The position numbers were made by a program, and so were the translations under genes. Below the pieces are notes generated by a model. It made no database searches and was not told the origin of the DNA. It was given only the letters and a program-made list of their open reading frames with translations. Positions 20,673 to 22,761 of a stretch of DNA of 64,000 nucleotides are shown one piece after another. Each line of letters opens with the position of its first letter. Positions within the stretch are counted from its first letter, which is position 1. The stretch lies in contig OY740786.1 in assembly GCA_963514005.1 (NCBI GenBank), forward strand, positions 90,396,001 through 90,460,000. The letters run 5' to 3'. The stretch is from Raja brachyura (lineage: Eukaryota).

Positions 20673-20982
20673 TTTAAGACTGAGTATAGGATAGTGTTGG
20701 GAAGCTGTGAAATGTATGCAGGGTTAGTCATTTGAAATGGGGACAATATTACTATTTAAGTTTATATATAGGTGTTTTTCAATTTAAACCAATCTAAAAA
20801 CCCTACAAAGGAAATACAAAGGCTCATTTGAAAACAAAAGTTATGTTCCCCAATGAATAAAGGAAGCACCATCCTGGCAACAAGTGTCATCAATTCAGAG
20901 TTTACATTTTCCTCTAAGAAAACCACATGTGGCTTTCAAAACATGCATGGAAGCTGTGAACCAATCTTATTTTTCTGAATGT

Positions 20983-21209
20983 ATAAGAAAGAACAGCAGA
21001 TGCTTGTGTAAACTGACGATAGACACAAGAAGCTGGAGTAACTCAGCGGGTCAGGCAGCATCTCTGGAGAAAAGGAATAAGTGACGTTTCGGGCCAGGAT
21101 CCTTCTTCAGACAGTCTGAAGAAGGGTCCCGACCTGAAACGTCACCTGTTCCTTTTCTCAGAGATGTTGCCTGACCCACTGAGTTACTCCAGCTTCTTAT
21201 GTCTATCTT
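20983..21209. mobile_element. Penelope-derived fold-back element with back-to-back hammerhead cores
   Basis: Centre CTTCAGACAGTCTGAAG with ~95-bp inverted arms. TSD TTATTT(T/G)TCTGAATGT at 20967-20982 and 21210-21225. Confidence 0.9.
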
Positions 21210-22761
21210 TTATTTGTCTGAATGTTCTGTTCAGCGTTCTGACAATATTGCAAAAAAAACAAGAATGAGAAGCAAGATAGAAATCACAATTTACGAAAGA
21301 AAATGAAGATTTTGCTGAAAATTATAATTCCCTGATATAATTTAGTTTGTAACTAAAAAAGAGTTATTATTTCTGTGGTTACCAGCAGAGGTCCAATGGG
21401 AGATAGACACAAATTGCTGGAGTAACAGCAGTTCAGGCAGCATCTCTGGAGCCCCTTCTTCAAGCAATGGGATATGCATTGCATGGCAGATAAAATAAAG
21501 AAATCCATTCCCACCCTCTTGGGGCTATACAAATGGCATTCCCAGAAACTGTAATGAAAATGAAGTGATGTCCAGAAGGACAGCACTGAAGTTTGTTCAG
21601 GCAATGATATTAATGGTTATCAGGTTGAATATAGCACATTCCTTCACAAACTAGTTCACAAATTAGCTCCTGCAGGGAGAGGCCTGCCACAATATTGCCA
21701 GTTTTGCAGAAAGTATATGCCAGACTTGTCACTATGAGTGATTTAAAAAAAAAATTGATGAAAGCCTGAGGTACTGTACATGGCAACCAGGTGTAGTATC
21801 CTATTAATATTATATTTCGATGAAATTTAAGATGGGAGACATTTTATAATGACCTACATGGAAATTGTGCATGTAAGCAATTTTCCCTCCTCATTCAAAT
21901 TGCTTCAAAATTTAAGAGCACATCACATCAGTTCATGACTTTATGAATGTATGTGAACTGCTTTGCATGCTGCAGGTGAAACTTATGTACTTATAAAATG
22001 TACTTACTGTGGTTTGGGAGGAACACACAACCCAGACAGCTGCCCTGGTGAGATTAAGGAAGAGTGAATTTTATCAAGAAATCAGAGACAACTGAGAGGA
22101 GCAAGTTATCCATCAGCCTCAGATGGGACACATCCTTGATCATGCATCGGACCACTTTCAGAAGAAACACTCTCGCTTTAAAACCTTAAGAGAGAAGAGA
22201 TTATTGCGAAAGACCATAAATGTCCATAGGTTGATTAACAGAGTAAATACAGTGCATTTTCTGAATCTTGATCTAAAATGTAGTCATCCATACTCGATCC
22301 CAGTTATTAATAACGTATATTATTCTAAATATTCATTGTGTTAACAATCACGTTGGTAAGAAAATTGTTCCAGGCACAGCTATGCGTTAAATAGACTTGA
22401 ATATGAATGTACATTTAATTGAGACCAATCGTTGATCCATCATTTGACAGTTTTTTTAATAAATAAAGTGAATTAATTTTTCCAATCACTTATATAAAAA
22501 AAACAAATTCAATCAGAGATTTTAAAAAGTCAAATCTATAATAATACATTAGATAGTGGGCAGAAGGAAATAGGTTTACAAAGAGGAGGAGCCACTGCCT
22601 TGCGTGCCAGAGACCAAGGTTCGACCCTGACTTCAGGTGCTGTCTGTGTAGAGTTTGCAGAGAGTCACCCTCTCTGTGATTGTCTGTGTTTTTTCCAGGT
22701 GATCCAGTTTCCTCCCATATCCCAAAGATGTGCGGGTTTGTAGAGAGGCAGACAGACAACT

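Follow-up and report, generated by a model that had tools for sequence, protein, structure and literature searches.

The fold-back at positions 20983 to 21209 of the window (the whole 64-kb stretch of DNA analysed here) is one dead insertion consisting of two head-to-head pLTR stubs of a Neptune-type Penelope-like retrotransposon (PLE). As judged from the ends of several hundred related arms, the inversion was probably made by twin priming from two fixed sites of a single RNA, followed by end-to-end joining of two short cDNAs. The insert between the two copies of the target site duplication (TSD) measures 227 bp, and the locus comprises the following parts:

20967..20982, plus strand: left TSD copy, 16 bp (sequence, TSD scan)
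20983..21112, minus strand: arm 1, a pLTR stub assigned to the older "B" subfamily and bearing a tail of about 33 nt (profile search, model positions 2 to 128)
20983..21017, minus strand: Penelope "tail" extension (about 33 nt), confined to arm 1; such a tail is described in the available text of PMC8557442 and PMC11167929
21083..21110, minus strand: minimal type I hammerhead motif with an A-C mismatch in stem II at 21100 (read from the sequence)
21113..21209, plus strand: arm 2, a pLTR stub without tail (sequence, profile search)
21116..21143, plus strand: minimal type I hammerhead motif, its G10.1-C11.1 closing pair decayed to G-T (21135)
21210..21225, plus strand: right TSD copy with one mismatch (sequence, TSD scan)

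Segments 21018 to 21112 and 21114 to 21207 are 87 to 94% complementary, and the arms meet at the junction CTTCAGAC-A-GTCTGAAG. The 5′ end of arm 1 lies 2 nt and that of arm 2 lies 3 nt ahead of the hammerhead core. The fold-back, the 16-bp TSD with its single mismatch, and the two hammerhead-like cores (plus, 21116 to 21143; minus, 21110 to 21083) reported in a preliminary description of this DNA are thus real. Its "back-to-back hammerheads" are located on opposite strands, are predicted to be fully paired in the hairpin RNA, and are a by-product of a 5′-end pile-up, the two cores standing back to back because the 5′ ends accumulate just ahead of the core.

The origin of the arms was traced by using an old GIY-YIG remnant from the window as a query to fetch loci across the genome. 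In two of these loci (L032 and L038), the hammerhead motif follows the stop codon of the endonuclease at a distance of about 300 bp. A query with a reverse transcriptase (RT) fragment gave best 150 matches of 96 to 100% identity, many with open frames of more than 1100 codons, and the motif was present within the pLTR adjoining the ORF in all 20 long-ORF loci fetched (downstream in 19, the downstream end of the other being masked by N). Specifically, locus L058 has the structure pLTR, 1191-aa ORF, pLTR; a YIDD motif, a C-x4-C-x2-C linker ahead of the endonuclease (EN), and a GIY-YIG domain can be read from the sequence, and the RVT_1 match of the ORF is weak (E = 3e-4, below the curated cut-off). 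The linker agrees with the zinc finger-like linker (CX2-5CxxC between RT and EN) in the available text of PMC8557442 and points to Neptune as the element type, the clade resting on this motif. The traits of EN-containing (EN+) PLEs are present, i.e., 5′ truncation, partial tandems, an inverted 5′ copy, an optional tail of 30 to 40 bp, and a TSD.

The 3′ ends fall at two positions about 33 to 37 nt apart, corresponding to the known tail (L058 pLTR), and in the sampled loci the young, short copies agree at 97 to 100% with the pLTR of autonomous elements that are intact, with the identical two 3′ end positions. In addition, 54 of the 161 arms reaching the core start run on into pyrimidine-rich sequence resembling the element's UTR, compared with a background of 7%. 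Given that the motif lies in the pLTR of intact elements and that the 3′ ends are shared, each arm is the terminal stretch of about 97 or 130 nt of a Neptune-type PLE pLTR, and intact copies with the 1191-aa RT and GIY-YIG protein exist in this genome. The Penelope origin proposed in the preliminary description is thereby borne out. The same matches argue against its proposal of a distinct non-autonomous class: the stubs are largely plain Penelope truncations, namely pLTR ends of the autonomous element, an outcome that it had itself named as counting against its case. Both 3′ end sites of L058 (2730 to 2740 and 2765 to 2775; young-subfamily pLTR) carry TAAC(C/A)C. The no-tail site reads TAACCCT, which complements the telomere repeat of vertebrates and forms the core of the template in telomerase RNA; this motif is absent from older subfamilies. 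Target-RNA microhomology at the two sites is visible in several young copies. Four young copies (L145, L160, L166, and L237) have a downstream flank in common, which suggests that, near the beginning of contig C1, a segment was duplicated or another repeat served as a recurrent target.

The abundance of the stubs was estimated from an unselected sample of the 2.7-Gb genome that totals 789.6 kb and consists of 79 evenly chosen stretches of 10 kb, all on large contigs. This sample contained 235 insertions comprising 305 arms, and 53 head-to-head pairs were counted; 180 of the insertions were solo copies and 46 were simple head-to-head pairs, and multi-unit runs were rare. Extrapolation puts the number of insertions in the genome at about 0.8 million and that of fold-backs at roughly 180,000, and one exact core 28-mer occurs 50,606 times genome-wide. 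Membership in the retrozyme class was considered and rejected on the same counts, solo copies and head-to-head pairs being found instead of tandem hammerhead units. A related reading, in which a SINE-like or retrozyme-like family of 100 to 230 nt is transcribed separately from its own master copies and mobilised in trans, would account for the sharp common 5′ and 3′ ends (107 of the 161 arms reaching the core start, about two thirds, end there) and for the TSDs, and non-autonomous PLE derivatives are described in the available text of bioRxiv 10.64898/2026.07.22.740005. We nevertheless regard this reading as very improbable: besides the close match to the autonomous pLTR and the two 3′ ends in common, no stub-specific diagnostic sequence or common flank was seen in the sampled loci, a master sequence distinct from the autonomous partner was not found among them, every fold-back has its own junction, and the units are mostly not tandem arrays. 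The stubs resemble the non-LTR retrozymes of that preprint, as far as its available text goes, in being small, non-coding, and related to PLE pLTRs with a type I hammerhead, whereas those retrozymes are tandem hammerhead units and the copies studied here are mostly solo or inverted and match an autonomous pLTR.

Within the window, a profile search identified 24 arms in 17 groups, 5 of them head-to-head. This corrects the earlier figure of about 15 copies in 64 kb. The four further fold-backs reported earlier are real, the second and third with limits that were also set at 10031 to 10141 and 14284 to 14504, and are listed here together with a solo copy:

7537..7749, no strand assigned: fold-back pairing one arm with tail and one without, TSD of 8 bp (profile search, TSD scan)
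10026..10141, no strand assigned: fold-back with a perfect centre at model position 43, a short second arm, and a 15-bp TSD (1 mismatch)
14280..14504, no strand assigned: composite fold-back of a tail piece, a young-subfamily arm, and an A-subfamily arm
47875..48052, no strand assigned: fold-back, no-tail arm (model positions 3 to 103) versus tail arm (44 to 127)
63824..63975, minus strand: solo tail-type copy running on into C-rich upstream UTR

The fold-back at 10026 is inserted in the old Penelope GIY-YIG coding remnant (window 9960 to 10330), i.e., Penelope into Penelope; the composite holds both subfamilies inside one 12-bp TSD (read by eye); and the arms at 47875 to 48052 are non-nested, since the no-tail arm extends further 5′ than the tail arm. 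A forced five-way clustering yielded five differing consensuses with 4 to 25% decay, so there are more than the two subfamilies originally distinguished. Each fold-back does have its own junction, as had been noted, but the turning points are not random, because in four of the five window fold-backs at least one arm ends at model positions 1 to 4, just before CTGAAGA. The view that inversion arises anew at each insertion is supported by targets and TSDs that differ between fold-backs; TSDs were found in 30 of 59 fold-backs, versus 1 match in shifted controls subjected to the same TSD scan. Three further arrangements were observed in the window. At 17290 to 17447, a PLE ORF start stands directly upstream of a stub beginning at CTGAAGA; such a junction would be compatible with a template jump that left the 5′ end of the RNA and landed within the ORF start. 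At 29744 to 29895, two cores form a direct short tandem (a 36-nt piece, then a full stub; GTT at the cut site in both), the only arrangement seen in the window that might form a hammerhead dimer in cis. At 15398 to 15775, one stub is apparently split by an unrelated insertion of about 240 bp just after GAAA.

The family consensuses and the intact element fit the published core of the minimal type I hammerhead ribozyme (min-HHR), with CUGANGA, GAAA, and UH, a bulged nucleotide, G10.1-C11.1, and a palindromic helix III, so this part of the preliminary description is confirmed. In the plus core at 21116 to 21143, helix I measures 2 bp and helix III is the palindrome ACGT. The copy at 20983 to 21209 departs from the min-HHR in that the plus core has G-U at 10.1-11.1 and the minus core a mismatch in stem II. 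With stem II mutated in both cores, and with a read-through RNA predicted to form a hairpin at −159 to −162 kcal/mol in which both cores are fully paired, the earlier doubt about cleavage was justified, and the hammerhead in this copy is probably inactive. In an Rfam search, no hammerhead family matched at E ≤ 5; the only matches were to miRNAs, were driven by the hairpin, and stayed below threshold. A type III hammerhead that would cut upstream was rejected, as inspection revealed neither a stem I hairpin nor a helix III partner.

It could be argued that the paired hammerheads function as a back-to-back unit, e.g., by dimer cleavage or circle formation from fold-back RNA. Conservation of the core is higher than that of other non-CpG positions (0.94 versus 0.83, p = 1e-4; several downstream blocks are equally constant), the core positions are invariant across all five cluster consensuses, and the 2-bp helix I is still paired in 87 to 95% of the arms. 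However, as the cores lie on opposite strands, each transcript carries a single sense core, which is predicted to be fully paired (unpaired probability, 0.00); both stem IIs of the present copy are mutated; and the 5′ ends do not pile up at the ribozyme cut site, where a purine mismatch occurs in only 324 of 44,805 cases. Strict cores number 30 among about 310 arms. Stem II is invariant between the consensuses, which makes its covariation uninformative (loop II varies); individual copies show decay and wobble changes, with no compensatory stem II pairs among the commonest pair types. Taken together, a functional pair is hardly credible. Instead, we infer that the hammerhead would be a passenger at the 5′ end of the RNA, the templates being uncut. 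For min-HHRs of PLE pLTRs, opposite-strand paired motifs 100 to 700 bp apart and little or no monomer activity have already been described (PMC4209133). The motif studied here resembles the published ones in CUGANGA, the unpaired nucleotide before stem II, G10.1-C11.1, the palindromic ACGU, and the lack of loop III, and it shares the 2-bp helix I with that of Drosophila virilis (PMC4209133), whereas helix I has 4 to 5 bp in Schistosoma; stem II here has 5 bp. It differs from the published min-HHRs in that it starts almost exactly at the 5′-end pile-up and, in the copy at 20983 to 21209, is decayed.

The arms of a pair usually differ in their 3′ ends. One arm with tail and one without were present in 39 of the 49 classifiable unselected pairs, versus 24.5 expected (p = 2e-5; 4 more pairs could not be classified), and in 102 of 126 classifiable pairs among the 151 from all loci, a set enriched for young intact-core copies on contig C1. 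In 40 of these 102 pairs, the no-tail arm extends at least 10 nt further 5′, the opposite direction being seen in 12; for the 41 young tail/no-tail pairs, the numbers are 18 and 2. In 50 of the 102, the arm ends lie within 10 nt of each other. Tail-only inverted arms joined to a core-starting arm account for 362 exact junctions genome-wide, versus 0 for the reversed-pattern control; the partner lacked a tail in all 30 cases fetched, and an exact TSD of at least 8 bp was found in 20 of the 30. As the inverted arm consists of the tail only and its partner has none, the two share no sequence. Both arms belong to one subfamily in 89 of 95 pairs (6 are mixed). The arms of young pairs share minor alleles and are concordant in 31 of 31 pairs at column 46 and in 35 of 36 at column 83; three of the five pairs sharing column 46 have the same flank and may be duplicates. 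That the arms stem from two different RNAs as a rule was rejected on the 89 concordant pairs; the window copy at 14280 is discordant.

The origin published for such structures is self-priming, in which one strand (the cDNA or, according to Arkhipova et al. 2013, an antisense RNA) folds back and is copied into a palindrome, one arm of which the endonuclease would trim at the no-tail site. It has been proposed for head-to-head PLE junction palindromes in the available text of PMC3846280. It would explain the alleles common to both arms, the perfect centre of the copy at 10026, and the 50 pairs with near-coincident arm ends, and the sequence TCAGTCTGA at the pile-up site is itself palindromic. 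Self-priming demands, however, that one arm contain the other, yet 40 of the 102 pairs are non-nested in the forbidden direction; the 362 tail-only arms without any sequence common to their partner and the filler of 1 to 35 nt at many junctions likewise speak against it. The arm geometry observed here thus contradicts the self-priming proposal in the available text of PMC3846280, and we consider self-priming improbable for the present family. The asymmetry, the non-nesting, the tail-only arms, and the shared alleles together favor twin priming on one RNA. The evidence consists entirely of genomic scars, and four points are at odds with twin priming: 10 of the 49 pairs have like ends (tail/tail or no-tail/no-tail), 6 of the 95 pairs combine arms of different subfamilies, one-sided post-insertion deletions at palindrome centres could yield some of the non-nested pairs, and the perfect centre and nested short arm of the copy at 10026 fit self-priming.

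In the proposed twin-priming mechanism, the GIY-YIG domain would make a staggered cut of about 11 to 17 bp. Of the two target strands, one would then probably prime at the start site of the tail, and the other would use the no-tail site, which lies about 33 nt further 5′ on the same RNA. The tail-primed cDNA would more often be stopped early because the other primer lies ahead, and host end-joining would fuse the 3′ ends of both cDNAs. Twin priming agrees with in vitro findings in the available text of PMC11167929, according to which the PLE protein of an anole (Poseidon PAc) cuts and extends both strands from two RNA sites bounding the tail, and it is modelled there as a dimer with uncut RNA as the template.

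The 5′ ends of the arms concentrate 0 to 3 nt before the CTGAAGA core, often with an extra G. Whole-genome exact counts of mismatches just 5′ of the match gave 5447 of 50,606 (10.8%) before C3, 4351 of 45,159 (9.6%) at position −1, 9709 of 40,808 (23.8%) at −2, and 6473 of 31,099 (20.8%) at −3. G makes up 3188 of the 6473 departures (49%) at −3, 60 of the first 100 listed at −2, and 19 of the first 100 listed at C3. In several young solo copies, among the junctions listed, the extra G is located between TSD and element. The extra G and the pile-up just before the core suggest run-off of the cDNA at a capped transcription start at (C)AGT. By this step, the cDNAs would run off the capped 5′ end of the RNA and leave stubs of about 97 and 130 nt with an extra G. 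Some of the G residues at −2 may stem from re-annealing on an internal GTCT, as GAAG-type fillers occur; since such slippage explains part of the G signal, we hold the case for cap run-off to be evenly balanced. In D. virilis, Penelope is known to have a promoter inside the pLTR, with an initiator (available text of PMC2377424). Of the 24 RNA runs listed, all of them assembled contigs, the 4 that were aligned gave no usable signal of a start or an end.

The same twin-primed layout would result if the pile-up instead reflected stalling of the RT at an RNA structure or at a pyrimidine tract resembling a 3′ splice site (CAG) upstream of the hammerhead. A polypyrimidine tract ending in CAG does sit ahead of the core, in D. 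virilis the intron has been mapped to end on the 5′ flank of helix I (PMC4209133), and the pile-up spans at least 4 nt. Stalling is at variance, on the other hand, with the excess of G at −3 and −2 but not at C3, and no fixed upstream exon sequence was seen among the junctions listed. A full-length element (L065, position 2739, oriented) has its 5′ end precisely at the A located 3 nt ahead of the core, which is where a complete copy would be expected to begin if the transcript started at that base. The CA at the start site, which we take to be the pyrimidine-purine step of the initiator consensus, was likewise counted against stalling. On balance, we regard stalling as less likely than not.

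Combining twin priming with cap run-off, we tentatively propose that a two-headed complex uses two fixed sites of a single capped RNA to prime both strands of the target and thereby yields strong-stop-like cDNAs of about 97 and 130 nt from the 5′ pLTR; for the complete scheme, our confidence stops somewhat short of an even prospect. If it is true, joined cDNAs would give inverted pLTRs with a one-sided tail, and loss of one cDNA would give a solo stub. A single mechanism would then account for the tail as well as the inverted pLTR and for most of the approximately 0.8 million insertions, and would replace the self-priming/antisense model. If cap run-off in particular is true, the promoter would be located and the abundance of the short repeat explained. 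In the PLE literature covered, no twin-priming or cap run-off model was found.

Twin priming of LINE-1 likewise relies on a single RNA for priming by both target strands, and joining of the cDNAs leaves an inversion within a single TSD; the second primer of LINE-1 anneals internally at a variable site, and its arms are free of overlap. In the present family, in contrast, both starts are fixed at a spacing of about 33 nt, so duplicate arms are the usual outcome. With the EN+ PLEs in the available text of PMC8557442 and PMC3846280 (Adineta Pen2a), the present family shares the order pLTR-ORF-pLTR, the head-to-head inverted pLTR, the one-sided tail of 30 to 40 bp, the TSD around the whole unit, and insertion into older Penelope copies. 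It differs from them, as far as these texts go, in that the insertion consists of two pLTR stubs only (227 bp), in roughly 180,000 cases by extrapolation. The two AC-rich internal sites at which the RT starts and between which the tail lies, the extension of both strands, the predicted dimer, and the uncut RNA template have counterparts in Anolis Poseidon PAc in vitro (available text of PMC11167929). That protein belongs to another clade, however, and in the same text its extension of both strands is not tied to inverted insertions and no 5′ run-off stubs are described. Layout, tail, and hammerhead motif had thus already been described for PLEs (available text of PMC8557442 and PMC8969392), and the count of tail-only arms and the nesting test appear to be new.

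The locus at 20983 to 21209 is in itself ordinary decayed repeat DNA. Its value lies in the data that such copies provide on how PLEs, which are telomerase-related retroelements, make inverted ends and tails: tail-only and non-nested arms offer a sequence test separating self-priming from twin priming, and the genome holds intact, near-identical copies suited to in vitro work. With respect to host genes, the 80 of the window's 171 ORFs that were scanned gave only transposon domains (Tc1, hAT, and LINE-associated) and weak matches; short exons would escape such a scan. Remnants of Tc1/mariner transposase, a hAT fragment, and an ALKBH8_N-matching fragment that is probably LINE-derived are found at 1268 to 1756, 46703 to 47272, 52209 to 53233, 11005 to 11289, and 54131 to 54538. 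Finally, positions 24960 to 25600 contain a low-complexity purine/pyrimidine tract in an inverted arrangement, with G-rich repeats followed by C-rich ones.
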